Source: Bdellovibrionota bacterium
Lineage (GTDB): Bacteria; Bdellovibrionota_C; UBA2361
Assembly (NCBI GenBank): GCA_044352465.1
Contig: JBILDU010000017.1
Location: 1-37,275 of the forward strand
Direction: 5' to 3'
Length of the DNA stretch: 37,275 bases
The position numbers and the translations under genes are program-made. How positions within the stretch are numbered: position 1 is the stretch's first letter; each line of letters begins with the position of its first letter. A model generated the notes under the pieces. That model had not been told where the DNA came from, did not search any database, and saw nothing but the letters and a program-made list of their open reading frames with translations. Below, piece by piece: positions 1-37,275 of the stretch.

Positions 1-1775
1 TCGTCCGGGGTGAGCACCGCACGTTGCTGGACCTGCTCCTGAGTCCCGTCGTTTCGGCTTGCGAAGAACTCGATTATTTTTTTGTTCGAGCCTTTTGAAG
101 CGGTCTTAAACCGAATAGTCATCTGCCCAGTTTCTTTCGAGGCCCACTCCGCATCTTGAATGTCCAGCGGGGGCATTAAGATCTTCGTGCTGAAACCAGC
201 CAGCACCGAGTCCGCGTCGTCACCGTAGTTGGCTTTTACCTGAGCGATCGACTGAATAGCCGCGACGATACTGACGTTTCGTGAACGCAGGGTGTTGAGC
301 TTCACATGGATGTCGGGGAGGCGACCGAGGGAGCTTGCGAACTCGTCGATCACGAGCCCCACCGGTCGGGGGAGTGATACTCCGGGGCACTGCTCAGCTC
401 GTTTCGTTAAGAATCGCAGGATCTCCACGATGATAACGTTCGCCATCGGCCGAAGCATCTCGATCTCGGATTCGCGCAGCTCGATGATAAAGAGGGTCGG
501 CTCGGCGATGAGGCTCTCAAGATCGAGTTCGTTGGAGGCGGTGGTCGCACGAATCGCCGTGAGATCCCATGCGCTCAGTCGCATACCGAGCTCGGACATG
601 ATCGTATCAGCGTTCTGTGAGCCGGAGCGGGCGAGCTCAACGAAGGTGCGTGCTGTTCGGAGTGCATGGGGGTGGGCCTCGATCCAGTCGCACAGATTCT
701 TCATACCCGATTGCACGAGCTCGTGAATACGGGGCATCGAGAGCTTTTCTTTCGGGTCGTTGAGCAACCCAACCATGATGGCGTTGAGAATGGAAAGCGC
801 GTTGTTACGAAAAAACGGACTGTCCGACTTCGCTTGGGGCTGGTCAGTCGCCATGATAATCGTGTTGGCGATTAATTTAGCATCGGTATCGTCCTCGATC
901 TTCGACAGGATGTTCCAACTGAGGCTCCGCGCGGTGTCGAGCGGATTGAACAACATGATCTTCTTCTTCGGATTGTATTTCGCCGTCATGGCCGCGAGCT
1001 TTCGCCACATCTCCGGCTTTGAGTCTAAGATTATCGTCGAGCGATGGGGGCACAGACAGTCGCTGTACAAGATCGGTAAGATCATGCGCGAGGTCTTACC
1101 ACCACCGGTTTTGGCGATCGTGAGGATATGCCGATTACGGTCGTTTGAGGGAATGATGAGTTGCCCCTGTTTGACCGCGACTCCTTGGTTGCCGCGGAGC
1201 TCTGTCACATTTAAAACGGTCTCGTTTTTGCCTTTTGACTGGGTCCAAGCGACGATCTGTTCGTTACTTGCAAGGTCGCCAGAGCCAAGCTCGTTGGTTT
1301 TCGATCGCACCGGTCGAGCGACGCCGCTGCGCCGCAAAAAGCTCAACGGGTTCGGGATCGATACCCCTCCCGACTCAGTTGAACGCAGGAGGTTGAAGAC
1401 AACGAACCCAAGATAGACGACGATCGAAACGAAGAGCCCCTCTTCCCACACCGAACGAAACTCGGCTGGCGCGACGAAGAAAGAGAAGAGCGGTTCAACC
1501 AGTGGAAGCGGGGTCATGCTTTTACTCGGTTCATCAAAGCTTCGTGAGGCCGAGATAATGCTCTCGATGGTCGACTCACGTTGAAAGTAGTGGAGAAAGG
1601 CACCGTAAAAGCCTGCCACACCGAGGATACCGGGGCTAACCATTTCACCCCGCTGAAGATACTGATAGCCAAGCAGTGCTGCTGACAAGAGGGCCAGGGC
1701 AACGCCGGCACCGGTCGGAAGGGAGTAAAATCCGAATAGAATTTCAAGAAAGAGCCTCTCGATTCCTTGCAGCAT
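1..1775 (-). CDS. virD4: VirD4/TraG-family type IV secretion coupling ATPase (3' end beyond the window)
   Basis: Manual translation from ATG at 1775 (GGAGG RBS at 1788-1784) is open to position 1, about 591 codons. It has N-terminal hydrophobic segments, RHILTIAKTGGGKT Walker A (1115-1092), IILDSKPEM, LFNPLD..SLSWN, GLVIDEF Walker B (356-339), RSRNVSIVAAIQSIAQVKANYG and RAVLTPD, all T4CP hallmarks. It is absent from the ORF track because there is no stop in the window. Confidence 0.9.
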   Translation of the reverse strand, partial: MLQGIERLFLEILFGFYSLPTGAGVALALLSAALLGYQYLQRGEMVSPGILGVAGFYGAFLHYFQRESTIESIISASRSFDEPSKSMTPLPLVEPLFSFFVAPAEFRSVWEEGLFVSIVVYLGFVVFNLLRSTESGGVSIPNPLSFLRRSGVARPVRSKTNELGSGDLASNEQIVAWTQSKGKNETVLNVTELRGNQGVAVKQGQLIIPSNDRNRHILTIAKTGGGKTSRMILPILYSDCLCPHRSTIILDSKPEMWRKLAAMTAKYNPKKKIMLFNPLDTARSLSWNILSKIEDDTDAKLIANTIIMATDQPQAKSDSPFFRNNALSILNAIMVGLLNDPKEKLSMPRIHELVQSGMKNLCDWIEAHPHALRTARTFVELARSGSQNADTIMSELGMRLSAWDLTAIRATTASNELDLESLIAEPTLFIIELRESEIEMLRPMANVIIVEILRFLTKRAEQCPGVSLPRPVGLVIDEFASSLGRLPDIHVKLNTLRSRNVSIVAAIQSIAQVKANYGDDADSVLAGFSTKILMPPLDIQDAEWASKETGQMTIRFKTASKGSNKKIIEFFASRNDGTQEQVQQRAVLTPD

Positions 1776-6231: not shown

Positions 6232-7977
6232 CTAGCGCCCGCGGTGCTCGCGCCAATAACCCTCGACATAGCTTACCGCGGCTTTGAGCGCTGGCTCTGA
6301 GATATCGTTTATCCGATTGAGCGAGAGGCCTCTCATTCCGCTGTCATTAAGTACGGCGCCCCGCCGAATCAACTCAGCGAGGCACTCCGCAATCACACCC
6401 CGTTGGACTTCGACTTTCGGTTCAACAAAATTTAAGACTCGTTGCCGATTAATGGTGTGGTTGCCCGCAAAGAGCGAATCGTGATGGTGAAACCCGTGTT
6501 TCAGTACGGCGAGAGCAAGAGCACCGTCGAGTCCCGTCTTCTCGAGGTCACCGATTATCTGCACTTCGCGCTGTTCGATGGTCGCGCTCTGCTGTAGAGC
6601 TGGAGCTCCGTTCGTCTTTTCGTTCCGCTCCGCTAAGATATCGGGAAGTAGCTTCGCGGGGGGGGCGATGTTCGAGAGTTTAATCGCGGAACGAAGTTGT
6701 TCGAGATATTGAGGGAATGCCCTACTATCGAGGGTTAAAATGCGGTGTTCGAGCTTCAGGAGGGTGGGCGCCAATTCTTCGTCCACGTGACTACGACAAG
6801 CCCGGGTTAACTGATTAAAACGGTCCAGTGCGACCTTCGGCCCGACCTGTCGAGAGATTTCGTCAAGCGTTGCGTCAAATCTCTCCCCGCGACTTTCGAG
6901 GAGAAAGCCGAGCTTCGCGACTAAGTTGGTCCGCAAGGCTATCTCAGGGGTCGCGGCGATAGTCTCATGGAGCGGCTCCCGCTCGGTGTTGCTGATGCGG
7001 AGCCTTGCCATATCATCAAGCCGCTTCAGTTCACGGACAACGTGAGGATTCTCGGGGGTCATAGCGCGAGCGCTCATCGTCTCAATCAATGCCGGAATAG
7101 CTGCATCTCGCATGTCGGCCAAGATCGTGCGCAGCCCCTCCTCCTGAAAAGCCAAGAAGAGCGCGCTGGTATGGGTCACGTTGCCCTGCCGGTCCTTGAC
7201 GATGCTCGGAATCAAGACATCGAGTTCGGGTTTGGCCAACGACTCCAGCGCGTCAGTGATATCGCTGGCCCCGGTCGCTTCGAGCTGGTCGGATTTAAAA
7301 TGCCGTAGAACCGCCTTCTCCATCCCCGCCAAGGCGGAGTGAAAAAGTCGGAGCTTCTCAACGGTTCGATCGACGATACGGCTCTCACCCTCGCGGAGGT
7401 AGTTGACCCGGGCATTGAATGTATCGAGCACCCGATCTATCCCCGCATGCCACTCGTCGACATCCGTAATTGAGCTCGGGTCGTCTTTGACGACGATGAA
7501 GCCGACATCATCTTTGCCGCTCGTCGTCTTTCGTAGCACCATCGCGAGTGAGCAATCGGCTTGGCGGAGAAAGTCGATCGTCTCTCGATACGGTCCGAGT
7601 TGGGAGACTTCCTTGAGTGAATCGAGCAGCTGCTTCCCCGCATTGTTGACCGGCGTGAGTTCGCCGCGGATGGTGAGGACATCCTTGAGTGCACGGGTGT
7701 AACCGGTCGCGACGGCCAGAATGCGCAGTTCGTCGGGTGTCGGTACGGGAGCCTCCGTGGGGCGACGCTCCTGTAGCGCGCAGCGGCTGATTATTTCATC
7801 GGCGCTAGCGAGTATTGCATTGTGGGGACGTTCAGCCGACATACCCGGCTGAGCCTCGCGGTAAAGTCGGGCGAACTCGACTCCGATCTCCCGAGCGGCT
7901 TGACTCGAGAGACCCTCGGTTGAAGAGCCGACGGTCGGCTCACGATCTTTTTTAATACCGGTAGAGATTTCGCTCAT
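6232..7977 (-). CDS. Hypothetical alpha-helical protein, possible C-terminal winged-helix
   Basis: 581-aa ORF with ATG start, GGAG upstream and a helical, charged composition. No family recognised. Confidence 0.8.
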   Translation of the reverse strand: MSEISTGIKKDREPTVGSSTEGLSSQAAREIGVEFARLYREAQPGMSAERPHNAILASADEIISRCALQERRPTEAPVPTPDELRILAVATGYTRALKDVLTIRGELTPVNNAGKQLLDSLKEVSQLGPYRETIDFLRQADCSLAMVLRKTTSGKDDVGFIVVKDDPSSITDVDEWHAGIDRVLDTFNARVNYLREGESRIVDRTVEKLRLFHSALAGMEKAVLRHFKSDQLEATGASDITDALESLAKPELDVLIPSIVKDRQGNVTHTSALFLAFQEEGLRTILADMRDAAIPALIETMSARAMTPENPHVVRELKRLDDMARLRISNTEREPLHETIAATPEIALRTNLVAKLGFLLESRGERFDATLDEISRQVGPKVALDRFNQLTRACRSHVDEELAPTLLKLEHRILTLDSRAFPQYLEQLRSAIKLSNIAPPAKLLPDILAERNEKTNGAPALQQSATIEQREVQIIGDLEKTGLDGALALAVLKHGFHHHDSLFAGNHTINRQRVLNFVEPKVEVQRGVIAECLAELIRRGAVLNDSGMRGLSLNRINDISEPALKAAVSYVEGYWREHRGR

Positions 7978-8162: not shown

Positions 8163-8825
8163 TCAGTCTCTCTTGAGCAGCGCACTGACCTCGTGAAGTG
8201 TTCGACAAACAGGGTGGGGAGTCGTGGCGAGTCGGGCATGATCTTGGTGGCCGTGGCTCACAAGAATTACCGGGCATCCGAGCGCTCCACCGATCTCGGC
8301 GTCGTGATGGGTATCACCGACGATGAGGGCTTCGGCGGGGTCGATAGCTAGTTCGTGGAGAAGTCTTCGGGCGGTCTGCAGTTTCGATGTGCCGTCGTTT
8401 GTGGGATTGCCGAAGATTCCGCGGAAATGGGTCTCGATCTTGTAATGGGCCACGGTTTCCCTCAAGAGATCCTCCGGATAGGCGGAGAGGATAGCCTGCT
8501 TAAATCCCCGGGTCGTGAGTTCACCGAGCACCCCATGAGCGCCCTCGTGGAGGTCGCACTCAATCTTGCGCGCCTCGTACCGCTCCCCCCAGGCGGAGTG
8601 AATGACCGCATGGTCGAGTCGCTCCGGAGGAAACCCGAGGTGGTGGTAGTAGTCGGCTACCGGGAAGAGGAAATTCCGGCGGTGGTAGTGAATGTCGATC
8701 GAAGGGCCCCCGTGCGGGACGAGTACCTCATTGGTGACCTCGACGGTCAGCTCAACATCGTTCAGTAAGGTGCCGTTCCAGTCCCATAAGATATGCTTGA
8801 TACTCGAAGTGCTGAAAGTATTCAT
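8163..8825 (-). CDS. HAD-superfamily hydrolase (phosphoglycolate phosphatase-like)
   Basis: ILWDWNGTLLND motif I, ILSA motif II, K motif III, IVGDTHHDAE motif IV. ATG 8825 preferred over the ORF-track start 8882. Confidence 0.88.
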   Translation of the reverse strand: MNTFSTSSIKHILWDWNGTLLNDVELTVEVTNEVLVPHGGPSIDIHYHRRNFLFPVADYYHHLGFPPERLDHAVIHSAWGERYEARKIECDLHEGAHGVLGELTTRGFKQAILSAYPEDLLRETVAHYKIETHFRGIFGNPTNDGTSKLQTARRLLHELAIDPAEALIVGDTHHDAEIGGALGCPVILVSHGHQDHARLATTPHPVCRTLHEVSALLKRD

Positions 8826-9022
8826 GGAAATGACCCTAAAGAAATCCTCCTTATCCTGAGTGCGCGTGCCGCATCGCCTCATACTCGCGTTGCCGGCCTG
8901 GTGTCGCGCTGAGCGCTCCCGCCGAGCCCGTGGTTCCCCGTCACCTCTCTCGAGTGCCGGGGCTGCGCCCCCAGAGGGCCGTCCGAGTGCGACTTCGAGA
9001 GACAGCGCTCGATTTCATCTGT

Positions 9023-9055: not shown

Positions 9056-9892
9056 CTAAGCGCGCGACCGATTCATCGAGAGACACGCGAGCCTCAGCAG
9101 CCAGCACACCCCAAGGGAGAGACCGAAGGTGCACACAACGGTTGCTCCGGTTGGGAGATCCAGGACGTATGAGGCTGTAATTCCAGCACCACTCGTTAGC
9201 GCCCCGACGACCCAGCCAACGGCCAATTGGCCTCCGGTGGTCCGGGCGAGGAGCGCGCCACACACCGCGGGCACGATGAGGAATGAGAAGACGAGGAGCA
9301 CCCCGGCCAACTCTGTTGAACTAGTTACCACGAATCCAAAGGTCGAGTAAAACAGCAGGTCCCACCATTTGACCTTGATCCCATGACGTTCCGCGCTGAC
9401 CGGATCCCGCGAGATAAGGAAAAAGTAACGCCGCGCGAGGTAATGAACCAAGCCGACGGCGACATATATAACCGTTATTTTGATGAGCTCTCCGTCGTGA
9501 ACAAAAAGGAGATGTCCGACGAGGAGTGACTTCAGCTCTTCACCCCCTTCGGGAGCGCGGCTAAGAATGAGAACAGCGAGCGCTGCTGCGATCACATAGA
9601 CGATACCGATAAGCGCTTCCTGGGGAACGGGGGAGTCCTTCAGGCGGGTGAGGGTAAGTACGATGGCTCCCAGAAATGTTGCTCCGAGCGCACAGAGATA
9701 TCCCTCGGGGGAATGGAGTCCGTATCCGAGGAGCATCCCAAACGTCGCACCACACGCCGCCACCTGAGCCAAAGCGAGGTCAACAAAGATGACTCCCCGC
9801 GCGACGACGTGAAGCCCAAGGTAGGCGTGCATGCCGCTGAGGATGAGACACGCCAAAAAGGGGCGATACATCAGCTCGATAAAATCCGTCAT
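9056..9892 (-). CDS. Zn/Mn-type (ABC-3) metal ABC transporter permease, ZnuB-like
   Basis: Polytopic hydrophobic protein with GLHVVARGVIFVDLALAQVAACG, EALIGIVY, GVLLVFSFLIVP and LDLPTGATVV. Confidence 0.9.
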   Translation of the reverse strand: MTDFIELMYRPFLACLILSGMHAYLGLHVVARGVIFVDLALAQVAACGATFGMLLGYGLHSPEGYLCALGATFLGAIVLTLTRLKDSPVPQEALIGIVYVIAAALAVLILSRAPEGGEELKSLLVGHLLFVHDGELIKITVIYVAVGLVHYLARRYFFLISRDPVSAERHGIKVKWWDLLFYSTFGFVVTSSTELAGVLLVFSFLIVPAVCGALLARTTGGQLAVGWVVGALTSGAGITASYVLDLPTGATVVCTFGLSLGVCWLLRLACLSMNRSRA

Positions 9893-10845
9893 CGACGTAA
9901 CGCTGCAACGATTGAGTGAATGTTAAAGTCGAGCATGGCGATGTAGCTCGATGCTTCAGGGAGTTCCCCAACATTCTGACAGATCCGAACAACTTTGGCA
10001 CCGCTCTTCGTGGCGACCGCTTCGGCAGCGTCGGTCGGATGAAACGTTGCTTGAACGATGGCGGTGACCTCGGCCTCGCGAACATAAGCGACGATCGCTT
10101 CGATATGCTGAGGGGAGGGGGGAATCCCCGGTTTCGGCTCGAGGAATCGCTCGCTCGTCAGTTTCAGGAAGTCGGTGAGATAGACCCACTCGTTGTGATA
10201 CGCGACGATAGCTCGTCCGCGGTATGGTGCGATGAGCTTTCGCCAACCGGCGATCGCTGCGGTAAGTTTTTCCGTAAAGGATTCGGTGCCGCGGCGGTAG
10301 GCTTCGCCGTTCGCCGGATCCAGGAGCGCGAGCTTCGCTCCGATGGCGTGGGCGATGGTTAGGCCGTTCTCGGGCGAGAGCCAATAGTGCGGATTGCCGT
10401 GAAGGTGGATGTCGCCGTGCGCCCGGGTCACCGCAGCGTTGGGGATCTCGAGCAACGTGATATTGTGTGACAGATCAAGTTCACGCTCTCCGCCCGGTCG
10501 GAGAGCTGGTTTGCCGGCTGCGTTGACCAGGGGCTCTCGCCACGCCTCAAGATCGAGTCCGCTGTGTATAAAAAGGTCAGCCCGCTTCAGTCGCAAAACA
10601 TCGCTTGGCCGTGGCTCGATGAAATGAGGATTGAAGCGGGGAGATGCTATCGCTGTTGTCGTTACATGCGCCCCGCCGATCGCTTGGGCGATGTCCGCGT
10701 ATGAGGCCAACGTCGTGACGACCCGCAGGGGCTCGGCGGTGGCACAGGTGCCACCGCCGAGCATCGCCCCGACCCCCGACATGCCCACCAAAAGGGCGCG
10801 TGTGACCGCGGTGAGTATTCGGCTTTTCCGAAAGAACGGGTGCAT
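9889..10845 (-). CDS. Metal ABC transporter substrate-binding protein, ZnuA/TroA family
   Basis: LRVVTT, NPHFIEPRPSD, GLDLE, GDIHLHGNPHYWLSP, AYH, LEPKPGIPPSPQH; hydrophobic N-terminal signal. Confidence 0.92.
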   Translation of the reverse strand: MHPFFRKSRILTAVTRALLVGMSGVGAMLGGGTCATAEPLRVVTTLASYADIAQAIGGAHVTTTAIASPRFNPHFIEPRPSDVLRLKRADLFIHSGLDLEAWREPLVNAAGKPALRPGGERELDLSHNITLLEIPNAAVTRAHGDIHLHGNPHYWLSPENGLTIAHAIGAKLALLDPANGEAYRRGTESFTEKLTAAIAGWRKLIAPYRGRAIVAYHNEWVYLTDFLKLTSERFLEPKPGIPPSPQHIEAIVAYVREAEVTAIVQATFHPTDAAEAVATKSGAKVVRICQNVGELPEASSYIAMLDFNIHSIVAALRR

Positions 10846-10852
10846 ACGCTTC

Positions 10853-12103
10853 CTACTGGATCATGTGTTTGTGGACACCGATAGCGAAGGTGCCCTGGAG
10901 AAAGAACCGATTGTCATCAGTTCCGTCGGCCAGGTCGGCCCGTTGATACTGGAGCCGCCACCGGGCGAATTCGCTTTGGTAGAAGGTAATCATCGCGTTA
11001 TACGCCTTATCGGCCGACTGCGCACTCGCCTCTTCGAGGAGGGTCGGCTCCACATAGTCGTACCGGGTTCCCACACCCCACCGATCCGCGAAGCGATAGT
11101 CCGCCAACGCGTAGAGGCCGTAGGGACTGTCGGCGTAAATCTCCTCGAGCCCGTCGTTGCCCGATGTTTCATCGCGTGATTGCAGATAGATCTCGCTCTG
11201 AAGCTTCAACTTATTACGGGGGGTCACATAGTGTATGAACGTTGCATCGATACCAAAAGCTTGGACCTCCGCGCTGCTGTCGTCGTCTTGCGAACCGAGC
11301 AGGTACGTTCCGCCGAGTTCAAACGATGAATCGTCCGAGATATCGAGGAAGTGAGCGAGGTGCCCATAGCCTGACGGACGCCGCCGGGTCTCTCCAAAAA
11401 GCTCACCGTCCTCGCCGACACCTCCCTCCATCACGCCGAGCGTGAGCTCTTGCGTAAAGGTGTCGCCCGAGAGTGGGGTAAAGACCGAGCCTTCAAGGCC
11501 GGTTCGAAAGAGGCCTTCGATTCCGAAGTAGCGTTGCACCACGAGTGGCTCATCGACCGTCTCGAGCGAATCGCGGTGTTGCGCCGTTGCTTTGCCCACC
11601 TTTTGCCGCATGCGCCCGATCCGAGCCAAGGTGTCGTAGGGAAGTCCCGAATAGGTGACCTTGGCCTCCTCGATATCGGGATCCTCGAAGTCAGAGAAGG
11701 TGAGCACCGTATCGAGCCGCGCATACGGGTCGATGTCGTGCCCGAAAACGACCTCGATCTCCCGCACACTCAATCGGTCGTTACCCTCCTCGTCCTCGGA
11801 GCTCCCCGTGCTTGAGGCCACGATGTCGGTAATGACACCGATATCGGGGAGAAACTGCGTTCGTGGGGTGGTTGGCTCCGAACCGGTGGGTCGAGTGGCC
11901 ACCGTTGCGGAGGTTGTGCGGGAGCCGCTCGCCCCTGAGAGCCGATCTATCGTCGCTTGCTGAGTTTGGACTTGGGACTCGAGTCTTCGCACCAGAGCCT
12001 CGAGCTCAGCCAGACGTTGACCTTCGGGCGGCGTGGGGCCCGCGAAAGCGGTCGAAGAGAGGAGGAAAAGAGTGGTCGAGAGAGTCGAGATAAAATTTTT
12101 CAT
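10853..12103 (-). CDS. Outer-membrane beta-barrel, putative metal-uptake porin/receptor
   Basis: Sec signal (..STAFA), coiled-coil N-terminus, PDIGVI, REIEVVFGHDIDPY, IEEA, alternating aromatic beta-strands, SEFARWRLQY, His-containing tail QGTFAIGVHKH; upstream of the znuA-like gene. Confidence 0.8.
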   Translation of the reverse strand: MKNFISTLSTTLFLLSSTAFAGPTPPEGQRLAELEALVRRLESQVQTQQATIDRLSGASGSRTTSATVATRPTGSEPTTPRTQFLPDIGVITDIVASSTGSSEDEEGNDRLSVREIEVVFGHDIDPYARLDTVLTFSDFEDPDIEEAKVTYSGLPYDTLARIGRMRQKVGKATAQHRDSLETVDEPLVVQRYFGIEGLFRTGLEGSVFTPLSGDTFTQELTLGVMEGGVGEDGELFGETRRRPSGYGHLAHFLDISDDSSFELGGTYLLGSQDDDSSAEVQAFGIDATFIHYVTPRNKLKLQSEIYLQSRDETSGNDGLEEIYADSPYGLYALADYRFADRWGVGTRYDYVEPTLLEEASAQSADKAYNAMITFYQSEFARWRLQYQRADLADGTDDNRFFLQGTFAIGVHKHMIQ

Positions 12104-12163
12104 AACTAAAACTTCTTCTTTTATGCCGAGATTCTACGCCACCGCGCTGTGAGCGCGGGGGAG

Positions 12164-12529
12164 CTATCGAGGACTCTCCGAGGTTGTCACCGCGGAGAGA
12201 GAGCTGCAGCGGTAACTGGGCGGCGGGTCGCGAGCGGATGTCGGCGCTTCGGGCTCAACCCCGCACGAGCTGGGGGGAGCTGGGGGTGTGAATCGCGTCT
12301 CTCCGCGGGGTGGCGGAGCATTCACGGGGGCGCTCGTAAGCGCGTGCCCACTCGCTTGGAGTGCCAGGCACTCGGTGCACAGGCTGGCGCGTGAGCTATG
12401 CTCGGGGGGATGTCCCTCGTGGGTATGGGGGAAAAATCGAAGGCTTACCATCACGCCACATGCAGCGAGCGCCAGGGCCAAGAGCGACCGTCGCCAGAGG
12501 CGCATTATGGTGGTGCGGGGTGGTTCCAT
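12164..12529 (-). CDS. DUF2946/CruR-like His/Cys-rich leader protein with RDPP arrest-like motif
   Basis: Basic N-terminus, hydrophobic helix, HTHEGHPPEH, CTEC, Pro-rich linker, then SARDPPP (12232-12218). First gene of the metal-uptake operon. Start could be ATG 12529 or 12505. Confidence 0.75.
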   Translation of the reverse strand: MEPPRTTIMRLWRRSLLALALAACGVMVSLRFFPHTHEGHPPEHSSRASLCTECLALQASGHALTSAPVNAPPPRGETRFTPPAPPSSCGVEPEAPTSARDPPPSYRCSSLSAVTTSESPR

Positions 12530-12536
12530 CGCCCGG

Positions 12537-12565
12537 ACCTTAGTGCAACTTGGGTGCGTTTGCAA
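12537..12565 (-). promoter_or_regulatory. sigma70-type promoter of the metal-uptake operon with an imperfect palindrome in the spacer
   Basis: Minus strand TTGCAA(12565-12560)-17 nt-TAAGGT(12542-12537). The spacer reads GTGCAAC-TTG-GGTGCGT on the + strand. Confidence 0.55.
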
Positions 12566-12860
12566 GTCGGTGGCGATTTGGGTCTCGTTTGAAGTGGTCG
12601 GCCAGTAAAGTAAGTGCTTTGATTTGCTCGGCTTTATGCGTTTTGCCGAGGGGGCAATGATGTCCCGTGTCGGGCCCGGTTCGGCGCGACGCTCAAAGTG
12701 AGTTGTAAACCCCGGTACGGTGTTTCAAGGCCGCCGCCGGTTATGCTTAGCCGCGCTGCTGTGATAGTATGCGCCGACTTCGTCGTTTTTCTATCCGTAA
12801 TTGAGCTAAAAGCCCAACGCTCTTTCGAGCATGACGTGGGCTCACGAGGTAGTAATCGCC

Positions 12861-13859
12861 ATGCAAGGAATCTCAGCTATCGTGCCCGTCTACAACGAGG
12901 AGGACAACGTTGTCCTTTCTTACAACGAGCTGACCGCGGTGCTCAGTTCGATGGGGTGTGAGTACGAGATTATCTACGTCGATGACGGCTCACGGGATAA
13001 CTCATTGCCGCGGCTGCGGCAGATTGCAGCTCAAGATGCCCGGGTGCGGGTGGTTCAGTTTCGGCGCAATTTCGGTCAAACGGCCGCGATGGCGGCGGGG
13101 TTTGATCACTCCCGTTTCGATACCGTGGTGACCCTCGATGGTGACCTTCAGAACGATCCTCGGGAGATCCCAGCGATGGTGCGTAAGCTCGCCGAGGGAT
13201 ACGACCTGGTGGCTGGATGGCGTAAAGATCGGAAAGACAAGCTTTTAAGTCGGCGTCTCCCGAGCGTCATCGCCAATTGGCTCATCTCCAAGTCGACCAG
13301 CGTGCAGTTGCACGATTACGGCTGCACCTTGAAGGTCATGACCGGTGAGGTTGCCCGGGGTATAAAGCTATACGGCGAGATGCACCGCTTTATTCCGGCT
13401 CTCGCCGGTGAGATGGGGGCTCGAATAGCCGAGGTGCCGGTGAATCACCGGGCGCGTCGTTTCGGAACCTCGAAGTACGGCATATCCCGGACGTTGCGGG
13501 TAATCCTCGATCTGATAACGGTGAAGTTCCTCCTCGGATACTCCAAACGTCCGATCCATCTTTTCGGAACACTGGGTCTTCTCTCCGGTGGTTTCGGAGC
13601 GCTGCTTTTGGCGATACTCACCTACCAGCGGATGTTTCAAGATGTCCCGATGGGCAATCGTCCGTTGCTGGCGCTCGGTGTGATGCTCGTGATTATCGGA
13701 CTTCAATTCCTTGTTTTTGGCCTTATCGGCGAGGTCCTGGCGCGGACGTACTACGAGTCGCAAGATAAGCGGATTTATGTGGTTCGCAAAGTTCACGAAC
13801 TCGGTGGTTCGAACGAGCCGACCGACGCAACGGTGTGGCCGCGGAAGGTGGCGAATTAA
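12861..13859 (+). CDS. GT2 polyprenol-phosphate glycosyltransferase (DPM1/ArnC-like)
   Basis: ISAIVPVYNEE, YVDDGSRD, FRRNFGQTAAM, TLDGDLQNDP, LYGEMHRFIP and two C-terminal TM helices; GAGG upstream of ATG 12861. Confidence 0.92.
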   Translation: MQGISAIVPVYNEEDNVVLSYNELTAVLSSMGCEYEIIYVDDGSRDNSLPRLRQIAAQDARVRVVQFRRNFGQTAAMAAGFDHSRFDTVVTLDGDLQNDPREIPAMVRKLAEGYDLVAGWRKDRKDKLLSRRLPSVIANWLISKSTSVQLHDYGCTLKVMTGEVARGIKLYGEMHRFIPALAGEMGARIAEVPVNHRARRFGTSKYGISRTLRVILDLITVKFLLGYSKRPIHLFGTLGLLSGGFGALLLAILTYQRMFQDVPMGNRPLLALGVMLVIIGLQFLVFGLIGEVLARTYYESQDKRIYVVRKVHELGGSNEPTDATVWPRKVAN

Positions 13860-35170: not shown

Positions 35171-35506
35171 CCGGCGGGGCTGATGGCGCGGTGTATCAAT
35201 CCGAAAATATTGATAAAAACTTAGTGGGCGTGTTTTTCTCCGCGCAAGATTCGCTAGAAAAGTCCGGTGGGCCGATCAGAACGCTCGTTTTGTAGGGTAA
35301 AAAGTAGTTTAGCTGTGGTGGGGTGGGTAAAATTGAGGCTGGTCGGCGTAATTCAGATGTGAGCGCACCAGGTTTTCTAGTCTGTTTTAGTCCCTCGTTC
35401 TCGTTCGGTTTTTACCGCACATCCCCTTTATTTCTGACCATAACGCCAGGTGGGGTGGAGGAATCAAAAAACCTCAGCCCGTGTAGGAATTTTTGGTTGG
35501 TTTTCT

Positions 35507-37275
35507 ATGTCCTCATCGCGTCTTGATACGCCAGTCGTGGCCACGCCTACCGGCGGTGAGCCGGCGACCGCGCCCGTGCAAAGCCAATCAACCGACCTCT
35601 CCACCCTTGGTATCAGCCGAGATTCGCTCAGCGCCGAGACAAAAACAGCTACTCCGAAAAATGCAGACTTCGATCCCTCCCTCAAGGTGACCGGCACCGA
35701 TCTCGATGTCGAGCGTGCTGAGAACGCCAAGGCCGTCCTCGGACTCGATCTCGATAAAGTTGCGTCTGATTACAAAGCTGCGAACGAGGCGCTTGCGGCT
35801 CGTCACGAGGAGCTCCAGAACGCTGGTTTCGAGGATGCGGCGGCTCCAGCCGGAATTCCAAATCTGCTCCGCTCGGCGGGGGCCGGGGGCAGCTCGGTTC
35901 GCGCTCTGCAGCAACAAGAGCTCGCTCAAAGCGAAGCGATGCTCCTCGCGGGAAAATCGAAAAAGAAGACCGGAAACCGCGAGGTCGATGATTTTATCGA
36001 ACTCCATCCGGAGCTCCTCCCCCTTGTGGCAAAGATTCAAGAGGAGCTCGCCGCAATCGAGCGGGCGCGCTCTGGTGGGAGTAATGGTCTTGAATCGAAG
36101 TCGAATCTCGAAGCTGCCCTTGATCGAGTTGCCACTCTCCTCGAGGGACAGCCGCTTGCCCCAGAGCTGCGGATGGGGAACCGGACCGCGCGAAATGCTC
36201 TCCTGGCTCTGGTAGGTGAATCGCTTCGGGATTCCTGTGAGGCTGCGCTCGATCGGTTCGCTCAATCCGCAGTAAGATCAGCTGAGGCGCGGCGGCTCGA
36301 CGTTACGGAGCGCCGTTCCGAAAACGTGGCAGAGCGTGCCCGAGAGCTAGAAGAGATCGAAAAACAGGCTCAAAGAATCGGACGTGAAAGGGGAGCTATC
36401 CTCGCGGCTCCTCGCCCGCCCGCGGCCGAGGCTCTTCAGGAGCTCGAGCTGCAGCGGCGGGAGCTCGAGCGAAGAATTCAGGCTCTCTTGGGCGGGGCCG
36501 AACCGGGCCAAGCCCATCTAGCCGCGGTGCTGAAACAGAGCGAGGACGCGGCTCGGGCACAGGTTGTATCAGAACATATCTACGAGCTTGCAAGAGATGT
36601 CCGACTCCTCGAGGGACGACGGGGTCAAAGCGTTGCTCACCGCGCCGCGCTCGAGCGACTCGCCGAATATCGGGAGAGCCAAGGTGATCTGATCCAGCGA
36701 AATGCCGCGGTGCGTGACGCATTGACCCGACATGAGGAGAGAGCCGTCCTGGATGCGGTACGGCTTTTAAGAAACGCGGACGCTGCAGCGCTGAATCTCT
36801 ATACCGCTGCGTGGGGATGGGGCACCGATGAGAAGTTGCTTCTCGCGACACTCAAGGGCCGGAGCGAATTCGAGCTCAAACTCCTGAAAGAAGTCTATCG
36901 TGAGCAGTACCAGCAGTCCATGGACGAGATGCTGGCAGCAGAGATTAATCGAACCGGCACTATCGAGAAGCAGATCTGGGCTGCAGCAAACGGAGACCCG
37001 AATCACCGTGGCGGCGAAGTTGTTGCGTTGTCAGCTACCGAGCTTTCCGCCGCGGCGCCTGAACGCTCGTCCGAGACGATCCGCGCAGCTTTGGTGTCAT
37101 CTGACCAAGCCCAGCTTCTCGCAGTCGAGCTGCACGAGCGGATCGCTGTATCCGCCGATCCAGCCCTTGAGCTCGCACAGATACGGGAGCGCGCCGGAAC
37201 TGCGGGGCTGTCTTTACAGGAGATCGAACAGGCCGGTGTTGCCCTCGGTTTCCAAGAGGTACTTCCGGCGATCGA
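35507..37275 (+). CDS. Large helical protein containing an annexin repeat (3' end beyond the window)
   Basis: Manual translation from ATG 35507 is open to the window end, about 589 codons. It has an S/T/P-rich N-terminus, a coiled-coil-like middle, and DAAALNLYTAAWGWGTDEKLLLATLKGRSEFELKLLKEVYREQYQQSMDEMLAAEI at 36779-36946. Not in the ORF track. Confidence 0.88.
   Translation, partial: MSSSRLDTPVVATPTGGEPATAPVQSQSTDLSTLGISRDSLSAETKTATPKNADFDPSLKVTGTDLDVERAENAKAVLGLDLDKVASDYKAANEALAARHEELQNAGFEDAAAPAGIPNLLRSAGAGGSSVRALQQQELAQSEAMLLAGKSKKKTGNREVDDFIELHPELLPLVAKIQEELAAIERARSGGSNGLESKSNLEAALDRVATLLEGQPLAPELRMGNRTARNALLALVGESLRDSCEAALDRFAQSAVRSAEARRLDVTERRSENVAERARELEEIEKQAQRIGRERGAILAAPRPPAAEALQELELQRRELERRIQALLGGAEPGQAHLAAVLKQSEDAARAQVVSEHIYELARDVRLLEGRRGQSVAHRAALERLAEYRESQGDLIQRNAAVRDALTRHEERAVLDAVRLLRNADAAALNLYTAAWGWGTDEKLLLATLKGRSEFELKLLKEVYREQYQQSMDEMLAAEINRTGTIEKQIWAAANGDPNHRGGEVVALSATELSAAAPERSSETIRAALVSSDQAQLLAVELHERIAVSADPALELAQIRERAGTAGLSLQEIEQAGVALGFQEVLPAI

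Follow-up and report, generated by a model that had tools for sequence, protein, structure and literature searches.

A CruR/CutF-like small open reading frame with a putative RDPP arrest motif ahead of a porin, ZnuA and ABC-3 metal-import operon in a Bdellovibrionota bacterium

A metal-import operon of a Bdellovibrionota bacterium (GenBank assembly GCA_044352465.1, contig JBILDU010000017.1, positions 1 to 37,275) begins with a small open reading frame (ORF), and the question raised by this locus is what such an ORF does ahead of transport genes. The whole stretch of 37,275 nucleotides (nt) that was analysed is called here the window. We consider it probable, at roughly 60%, that the ORF truly is a leader of the CruR/CutF type (DUF2946-like) that works in cis, as a nascent-chain metal sensor at the head of four genes for metal import; this estimate draws on analogy with the two named systems. 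Comparison with related loci confirmed that the leader is a real conserved gene, with conserved anatomy, spacing and synteny. The leader and its parts are as follows.

12164..12529, minus strand: leader ORF, first gene of the operon, ATG to TAG, 121 amino acids (aa); orthologous small ORFs lie 5' of the barrel gene in 5/5 related loci
12434..12490, minus strand: helix at about residues 14-32, putatively a signal anchor or signal peptide, its N-flank basic, from hydropathy and the model helix
12398..12427, minus strand: His cluster HTHEGHPPEH, residues 35-44, of which H35 is invariant
12368..12379, minus strand: CxxC motif, here CTEC, residues 51-54, putative metal ligands; both Cys are invariant
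12221..12232, minus strand: RDPP, residues 100-103, codons CGC GAC CCG CCG, proposed as the arrest core, with R, P and P invariant
12164..12220, minus strand: 18-codon tail and stop, with Tyr106 (TAC) at 12212-12214, from DNA alignment with a related locus (L001)

These elements follow one another in the order basic N-terminus, hydrophobic helix, His cluster, CTEC, Pro-rich linker, SARDPPP and 18-residue tail, which is the order that a first-pass annotation had read from the sequence, and the Asp at the second position of the motif, to which the same annotation had drawn attention, is real. The basic residues of the N-terminus are R5, R10, R13 and R14, the hydrophobic segment spans residues 16-32 with a Kyte-Doolittle (KD) value of 2.12 over 17 aa, and the linker consists to 21% of Pro. 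The AlphaFold model of the leader showed a helix at residues 5-32, with a predicted local distance difference test (pLDDT) value of about 90, and a short helix at residues 52-61, at the CxxC.

Loci for comparison were fetched by means of the protein encoded by the next gene, a porin-like outer-membrane barrel, since the leader alone has almost no detectable relatives. Five of the 108 pattern matches were confirmed as related loci (L001 to L005), all of them on contigs of metagenome-assembled genomes, with the lineage labels Pseudomonadota, Auribacterota, Omnitrophota, Nitrospirales and Bdellovibrionales. In each of the five, a small ORF lies directly 5' of the barrel gene and encodes a basic N-terminus, a hydrophobic segment, H-x-H or HH, CxxC, a linker and R-x-P-P, followed by 1-3 residues and the stop; with the window included, H-x-H or HH after the helix was seen by eye in 6/6 leaders. 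The C-termini of the related leaders read ARDPPVT (L001), SRAPPR (L002), PRAPPVLV (L003), TRAPPAA (L004) and SRSPPLN (L005). The six-way alignment revealed M1, H35, C51, C54, P68, R100, P102 and P103 as the sole invariants, and the two Cys of CxxC are kept not only in 6/6 leaders but also in 9/9 of a larger set. Position 2 of R-x-P-P is A in three loci, D in two and S in one. Conservation of RxPP in ORFs ahead of the same barrel family, and of its distance from CxxC, had been proposed as a check by the first-pass annotation, and both are borne out: R, P and P are invariant in 5/5 loci, and 45 residues intervene between CxxC and R in 5/6 loci, the window among them, with 47 in L005; the published CruR/DUF2946 value is 45 (PMC9426467).

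The specificity of this arrangement was evident from a six-frame search of the window and the five related loci (139,940 residues), in which the pattern C..C-(43-47)-R.PP occurred once per source and always in the leader ORF. On its own, R[ADGS]PP occurs 13 times in the 39,625 six-frame residues of the window, and GC-rich DNA readily yields spurious ORFs rich in Pro and Arg, which together with the lack of a family match above threshold for the window leader might suggest a chance, functionless ORF in GC-rich intergenic DNA. However, the same motifs and spacing recur in 5/5 related loci with GC contents between 36% and 61%, and the full pattern is unique in every source; these comparative data already refute a chance ORF, to which we attach next to no credence.

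Outside its motifs the leader varies widely. The related leaders are 13-34% identical to that of the window, while identity of the neighbouring barrel protein amounts to 48-79% in the five loci, a pattern that suits a leader constrained by motif and spacing more than a folded protein. This bears on the possibility that the gene acts through its finished product, a small and stable metal-binding protein anchored in the membrane (for instance, a metallochaperone of the periplasm or an accessory subunit for the porin/ZnuA system), in which RxPP would be incidental. The conserved His and Cys ligands, the membrane anchor and the conserved operon position beside metal-transport proteins are all in keeping with such a protein, but the sequence between the motifs is barely conserved, the model is disordered after residue 61 (pLDDT of about 50, predicted template modelling score 0.28), and a tetrapeptide that is avoided elsewhere stands invariant at the very C-terminus and at a constant distance from CxxC, with a tail that tolerates loss of the stop codon. 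A stable protein of this kind is thus quite improbable.

The N-terminus is of one type throughout. In 6/6 leaders a 17-aa window reaches KD values of 2.12-2.74, the N-flank has a net charge of +2 to +5 and the following stretch one of -1 to -3, so that by hydropathy, flank charge and model helix all six carry the export signal or N-in transmembrane segment that is found in more than 95% of DUF2946 members (PMC9426467). Reading residues 21-24 (LAAC) as a lipoprotein signal was considered and rejected: the Cys is present in 4/6 leaders and, judged by eye, the lipobox is not conserved. In leaders of the Bdellovibrionales type (L005 at 1804-2136, and protein P0014; RSPP, spacing 47), the stretch from CxxC to RSPP contains another, strongly hydrophobic segment (KD value of 2.65 at residues 75-91), which the other leaders do not have. 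As to the translation start, the sequence favours the ATG at 12529 over a TTG at 12565, because a block at 12541-12565 that is conserved in L001 lies there in another frame relative to the ATG.

The layout recalls CruR, the prototype of DUF2946, and the known systems are compared here as far as the accessible parts of the cited papers describe them. CruR of Bordetella pertussis (Bp2923; PF11162) has an export signal, a CXXC motif and, at its C-terminus, RAPP 3 residues from the stop, and the CXXC-RAPP spacing is 45 residues, within 1-2, across a set of over 2000 DUF2946 proteins; copper regulation was strongly reduced when 5 residues were added to the CruR spacer (PMC9426467). In the model proposed for it, the ribosome stalled at RAPP blocks Rho-dependent termination, and copper bound to CXXC relieves the stall and switches the downstream TonB-dependent transporter off; CruR itself is predicted to be largely unstructured (PMC9426467). 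Arrest on CruR was obtained in the PURE system, and toeprinting placed the two Pro codons in the P and A sites (PMC12992588). The window leader and its relatives share with CruR the position as a small first ORF of a metal-transport operon, the export-type N-terminus, the invariant CxxC, the gene for an outer-membrane transporter as next neighbour, the 45 residues to R-x-P-P (C-terminal in the relatives) and a largely unstructured prediction; an importer as cargo also suits the rule that metal relieves arrest and switches expression off. They differ from CruR in position 2 of the motif (Asp in the window leader, Ser or Ala in relatives, against Ala in CruR), in the tail (18 residues in the window leader against 3) and in an invariant His and an HxH cluster that leaders of the window type add 5' of CxxC. 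The cargo is a porin-like barrel with ZnuA/ABC-3 instead of a TonB-dependent receptor with PepSY_TM, the intergenic spacer measures 60 nt in the window and 44-95 nt in the relatives against 162 nt for cruR of B. pertussis (PMC9426467), the Pfam model is not reached, and four of the five labelled lineages lie outside the proteobacterial classes in which CruR homologs mostly occur. The first-pass annotation had taken the DUF2946/CruR layout with its post-transcriptional control, and the stalling activity of RAPP and RGPP, as established, and both are in print: Rho-dependent control for CruR (PMC9426467), the related control by CutF (PMC9973294), and RAPP/RGPP arrest in the peptides ApdA, ApdP and SecM (RAGP) (Sakiyama 2021; Morici 2024, PMC10951233; Fujiwara 2025, PMC12992588).

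In CutF of Rhodobacter capsulatus, which carries CxxxC, a copper-induced pause melts a stem-loop over the Shine-Dalgarno sequence and switches an efflux/detoxification gene on (PMC9973294). The leader resembles CutF in being small and exported, in its Cys/His metal site, in its C-terminal Pro-Pro motif and in a proposed action in cis on the next gene, and differs from it in having CxxC and in that stem-loop unmasking was not predicted in 5/6 loci. CutF-like clusters are not all copper-specific, since His-only clusters, for example, lie 5' of HupE/UreJ, and the neighbour classes named for them in the accessible text are OEP/RND, TonB-like, PCuAC and HupE/UreJ, with ZnuA/ABC-3 and porins not among them (PMC9973294; bioRxiv 10.1101/2025.02.05.636593). 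No literature link of CruR/CutF-like leaders with ZnuA, TroA or ABC-3 was found in a search that covered sources other than the neighbour table (File S1) of PMC9973294; likewise, in the supplements of PMC9973294 and PMC9426467, that table excepted, there was no ZnuA, PF01297 or ABC-3. DUF2946-type small ORFs have a further tie to zinc homeostasis, as they occur 5' of Zn/Cd/Co RND efflux operons (for example, Caulobacter CC2720) with a link to the Zur regulon (PMC4176598). The likeness to CzcI and CC2720 lies in this tie; those ORFs precede efflux systems, and CzcI is without a C-terminal Pro motif, whereas here the cargo is for uptake and RxPP is invariant.

The R-x-P-P core near the C-terminus of a small membrane or secretory protein 5' of a regulated gene, with Arg and both Pro invariant, is also shared with ApdA, ApdP and SecM. 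In ApdA and ApdP, arrest partly survived when Ser, Asp or Pro took the place of Ala in RAPP, so that RDPP and RSPP are partially permissive there, and these two are among the most under-represented tetrapeptides in proteomes (PMC12992588). Among ten papers searched for it, as far as they were accessible, RDPP was mentioned only in that one; Asp and Ser at position 2 figure in ApdA/ApdP solely as partially permissive mutants and are not named as the native motif of a metal leader. The same likeness opens the possibility of a secretion or insertion monitor of the SecM/ApdP type, in which pulling of Sec or YidC on the helix, and not metal, would free the arrest and tie the production of envelope proteins to export capacity, with Cys and His in another role. 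Its hallmark is a small secretory or membrane protein with a RAPP-like motif near the C-terminus (PMC12992588), and all six leaders have the N-terminal hydrophobic segment that it requires. Nevertheless, the known monitors watch Sec/YidC and precede sec or yidC genes, while the genes downstream of the leader are for metal transport, and a monitor leaves unexplained the invariant CxxC and His at a fixed 45 residues, which match the metal-sensing CruR family; we therefore judge it to be quite unlikely.

The unusually long tail of the window leader, also remarked upon in the first-pass annotation, is real and is explained by a single-codon difference from L001. In the DNA alignment, the window TAC of Tyr106 (12212-12214) stands exactly at the TAA stop of L001, three codons after RDPP, and translation past Tyr106 runs through the former spacer to the TAG at 12164-12166; a protein 89% identical to the leader (P0007) shares both the Tyr and the tail. 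While RxPP lies 1-3 residues before the stop in the five relatives and 18 in the window, the last Pro codon of RxPP and the start of the barrel gene are 117 nt apart in the window, 104 nt in L001, 77 nt in L002, L003 and L004 (that of L003 using an internal ATG at 2908) and 65 nt in L005, which indicates a moved stop and not inserted sequence. The exact 77 nt in three distantly related loci may be a coincidence or a spacing constraint. The best reading of the 18-residue tail is a neutral or mildly modulating loss of the stop codon; a change of stop codon should be tolerated if the leader's job is done at the arrest site.

The genes behind the leader identify the operon as one for metal import, and they were located as follows.

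10853..12103, minus strand: gene presumably under the leader's control, for a porin-like outer-membrane barrel of 416 aa whose N-terminus forms a coiled coil, from the model and Foldseek
9889..10845, minus strand: ZnuA/TroA-type periplasmic metal-binding protein, 318 aa (PF01297, E 2.5e-51)
9056..9892, minus strand: ABC-3 family permease, 278 aa (PF00950, E 1.2e-33)
8163-8882, minus strand: HAD hydrolase, the next gene, 173 nt after the permease

The order leader, porin-like barrel, ZnuA-type binding protein and ABC-3 permease is the same in the window and in L002 to L005, and L001 is cut within the ZnuA gene; the genes after the permease vary by locus (HAD hydrolase, ArsP permease, YceI). With a porin-like channel and an importer of the cluster A-I type, the cargo is not a TonB-dependent receptor, in agreement with the first-pass annotation, which had opposed a Zn/Mn-type import system to a copper TonB receptor. 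The binding protein and the permease of such an importer are present and the ATPase gene is not in the operon: none follows the binding protein and permease in the window or in 4/4 complete related loci (L002 to L005), and neither an ABC ATPase nor a metalloregulator was found elsewhere in the window. The cognate ATPase may be encoded elsewhere.

The only Pfam match of the barrel was BBP2, sub-threshold at 24.7 bits against a cutoff of 26.2. Its AlphaFold model (6-sequence alignment, mean pLDDT 60) consists of a long N-terminal helix and a beta-barrel of about 19 strands by DSSP, or 18 if the split strand 321-336 is counted once. The best Foldseek matches were the 16-stranded porins VhChiP, OmpT, Omp32, OprP/OprO and DcaP, with TM scores of 0.50-0.57 normalised to the query. 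Its identity of 48-79% across the five labelled lineages is unusually high for an outer-membrane protein, and invariant acidic and His motifs include a C-terminal H-K-H; a tblastn search against plasmids gave no match. The barrel is accordingly a candidate outer-membrane metal channel, and a candidate for a new metal-channel family.

The best NCBIfam model of the binding protein is AztC, far below its cutoff, and the protein aligns best with structures of the YfeA, PsaA, ZnuA and TroA type. Residues His76, His141, Glu207 and Asp282 of YfeA, which we take to be its metal ligands and whose numbering agrees with the alignment, correspond to the following positions.

YfeA His76: H74 of the window binding protein, invariant in 5/5 orthologues
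YfeA His141: H153 of the window binding protein, invariant in 5/5 orthologues
YfeA Glu207: H217 of the window binding protein, invariant in 5/5 orthologues
YfeA Asp282 (fourth ligand): Cys289 of the window binding protein, Cys in 4/5 orthologues and Ala in L004

A ligand set of three His is a zinc-type pattern. An extra, short run of His (H143, H147 and H149) stands before the second ligand His153, and H147 is invariant. Judged from sequence, the metal sensed is probably zinc, the best guess because the operon combines a three-His binding protein with a His-plus-CxxC site in the leader; manganese, nickel, cobalt and copper are possible. Both the importer logic and the three-His binding protein fit uptake that is repressed by zinc.

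By analogy with CruR and CutF, from which we infer the function of the leader, its arrest, the direction of the switch and the part played by Rho would be the following. A ribosome translating the leader would arrest at R100-D101-P102 | P103, with an Arg-Asp-Pro peptidyl-tRNA and Pro-tRNA in the A site; this register (Pro102 in the P site, Pro103 in the A site) is taken over from the CruR toeprint (PMC12992588). At the predicted arrest point the distance to the peptidyl-transferase centre is 48-51 residues for CxxC and 58-67 residues for the His cluster. The ribosome exit tunnel is usually quoted as holding about 30-40 residues, and the N-terminal helix, the His cluster and CxxC would then be just out of it, a placement of both metal-site elements that would rationalise the fixed CxxC-RxPP ruler. 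Binding of metal, most plausibly Zn(II), to the nascent His/Cys site would alter the force on the chain or its folding and so relieve the arrest. When metal is scarce, the arrested ribosome would keep the downstream genes on, as in CruR, by shielding the C-rich RNA that follows the motif from Rho; with enough metal, the ribosome would run on and terminate, and downstream expression would drop. For an importer, this CruR direction, in which arrest means on and metal means off, is the most economical reading. The Asp at position 2, and the Ser of the Bdellovibrionales-labelled relatives, would represent natural variants of RAPP with weaker arrest.

An alternative keeps the metal and reverses the switch: metal on the exported nascent chain would induce or prolong the pause, for example opening the RNA over the ribosome-binding site of the barrel gene, and the operon would be metal-induced. 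This polarity is that of CutF, a member of the same broad family (PMC9973294), and the export-type N-terminus of 6/6 leaders would put His and CxxC outside the cytoplasm. It directs attention to the RNA between and around the genes, where the following features were found.

12139-12161, minus strand: hairpin CCGCGCT-CAC-AGCGCGG, core at 12142-12158, with extended 10-nt arms of 90% complementarity, from an inverted-repeat search
12174-12199, minus strand: tail hairpin with 11-nt arms, 91% complementary, and a 4-nt loop, in the tail-coding stretch and also in minimum-free-energy (MFE) folds
12541..12565, minus strand: conserved non-coding block 12-36 nt 5' of the ATG, with two TTGCA cores 18 nt apart; 23/25 positions identical to L001, flanks diverge
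about 12735-12775, minus strand: second conserved non-coding block; 31/41 positions identical to L001, flanks diverge

The first of these is the hairpin that the first-pass annotation had placed between the leader stop and the barrel gene, and it is indeed present there, between the stop at 12164-12166 and the barrel ATG at 12103, starting 3 nt (extended) or 6 nt (core) past the stop. A role for it is unsupported; the 67-nt intergenic fold is not statistically unusual (z = -1.06; 31/200 shuffles fold as well). It is not followed by a U-tract, and the terminator scan found no intrinsic terminator in the spacer. The tail hairpin lies 22 nt after the RDPP codons, in former spacer sequence. Each of the six loci has a hairpin between leader and barrel, that of L001 being different and beginning at the homologous GCGCTC, and a terminator-like hairpin with a U-run was seen only in L002. 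These hairpins suit the CutF polarity, as does L003, where the RAPP codons pair with the Shine-Dalgarno region of the barrel gene in the MFE fold. To assess unmasking, partition functions were computed for RNA folds in which a 32-nt footprint either covered the stall site or was absent: the modelled stall raised the accessibility of the barrel start region from 0.36 to 0.49 in L003, but left it unchanged in 5/6 loci, including the window (0.48 versus 0.48), and unmasking of the ribosome-binding site was rejected as a general mechanism on that account. Metal induction of an importer made of porin, ZnuA and permease would moreover be physiologically odd, and the leader has a CxxC at CruR spacing rather than the CxxxC of CutF. 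The reversed polarity is therefore held to be unlikely.

With respect to Rho, the stretch after RxPP has a C/G ratio of 1.0-2.0, above that of the barrel gene (0.68-1.03) in 6/6 loci, and is thus weakly similar to a Rho utilization (rut) site, although this ratio is a weak proxy for Rho action. Upstream of the leader, the block at 12541-12565 could be a promoter or an operator, and a weak -35/-10 pair can be read into it, from which transcription would begin at the leader ATG or beside it; a sigma-70 promoter scan of 11900-13000 returned 0 sites. An Rfam scan of 11800-13000 at E <= 1 gave one chance-level match to a long non-coding RNA (14 bits) and no known RNA element.

Several findings weigh against a CruR-like metal sensor. 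The hidden Markov model check against DUF2946, which the first-pass annotation had suggested, went against it: the window leader gave no match to the Pfam model (PF11162) at E <= 10, four of the five relatives scored 13.2-17.1 bits (E 0.009-0.16) against a gathering threshold of 23.7, and L002 gave none. The only Pfam match of the window leader was DUF6276, sub-threshold at E 0.013 and 16 bits against a cutoff of 27. In addition, the motif stands 18 residues before the stop and not 1-3, and in both of the peptides in which it was tested, RDPP was only partially permissive (PMC12992588), so that arrest here may be weak or dependent on context. CxxC alone is a copper motif in CruR (PMC9426467). 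No RNA structure is common to the six loci, as the MFE folds of the RxPP-to-barrel stretches differ (z from -2.78 to +0.35), and the short spacers (44-95 nt, compared with 162 nt in B. pertussis) leave little naked RNA for Rho. An hhalign comparison between the window/L001 subgroup and the remaining four lineages gave a modest link (E 3.6e-5, probability 71%) over 33 columns of the PHxH..CxxC segment. Finally, the family is tiny, and conservation statistics rest on few lineages. A single-sequence word-index search with the leader gave one match, an 89% identical protein; an exhaustive search of 1.84 billion representatives gave three, including the L001 leader (E 5.7e-5); and two leader profile searches gave 7 and 6 matches, adding only the close relatives P0011, P0014 and P0015 and no further lineage. 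The three index searches and the exhaustive one together yielded nine distinct proteins. Another of the three matches from the exhaustive search, a 4998-aa protein (P0008, 12 stretches) that matched the Pro-rich linker only, was set aside as low-complexity.

Seen against the description of DUF2946, the leader nevertheless shows an invariant CXXC, the 45-residue spacing, an export-type N-terminus and the position of first gene in a metal-homeostasis operon. The core tetrapeptide RAPP/RGPP is replaced in the window by RDPP, with its 18-residue tail, and the relatives have RAPP (3), RDPP (1) or RSPP (1) 1-3 residues before the stop. The four sub-threshold DUF2946 alignments are in register, running from the His/CxxC zone to a last profile position that corresponds to the second Pro, while the DUF6276 match and a sub-threshold LptM signal match of the window leader (E 0.086) are confined to the His/CxxC or signal segment. 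Among language-model look-alikes in the ESM Atlas, which are taken as a lead only, DUF2946 accounted for 16 of the 30 nearest named clusters, with a top score of 0.95; in the unfiltered search 29/30 nearest clusters were unnamed. The leader has a CruR-like architecture and probably belongs to a divergent branch of that family, rather than being a demonstrated member.

The rest of the window is ordinary chromosome, with polysaccharide synthesis, the shikimate pathway and a mur/ftsW cluster, and three further features were noted.

3-1775, minus strand: fragment of a TraG/VirD4-type coupling protein at the window edge, adjoining chromosomal genes
6232-7977, minus strand: 581-aa ORF with no Pfam or NCBIfam match
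35450-37273, plus strand: 608-aa protein with an annexin repeat

These results show that searches at Pfam thresholds miss such leaders and that searches for motif plus spacing 5' of transport genes recover them. Metal-sensing arrest leaders have been characterised experimentally only in two copper systems, CruR and CutF, which work in opposite directions. The principle is therefore known, and what differs here are the native RDPP and RSPP cores, the invariant His, the cargo of a coiled-coil porin with an ATPase-less ZnuA/ABC-3 system, the rare and scattered distribution and the stop-loss tail. We put forward tentatively, as a proposal with somewhat less than an even chance of holding, that the locus is the founding example of a rare, scattered branch of zinc or divalent-metal sensors gating an undescribed route of coiled-coil porin and ATPase-less ZnuA/ABC-3, with position 2 tuned by lineage. 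If true, this would carry the principle of CruR beyond copper TonB receptors to ABC importers, and native RDPP and RSPP arrest sequences would be available. Since the exact CxxC-to-RxPP ruler is kept while an invariant His and a zinc-type importer are added, these leaders offer a natural test of metal specificity and switch direction, and the natural variation of Ala, Asp and Ser at position 2 tests how far an arrest core may drift.

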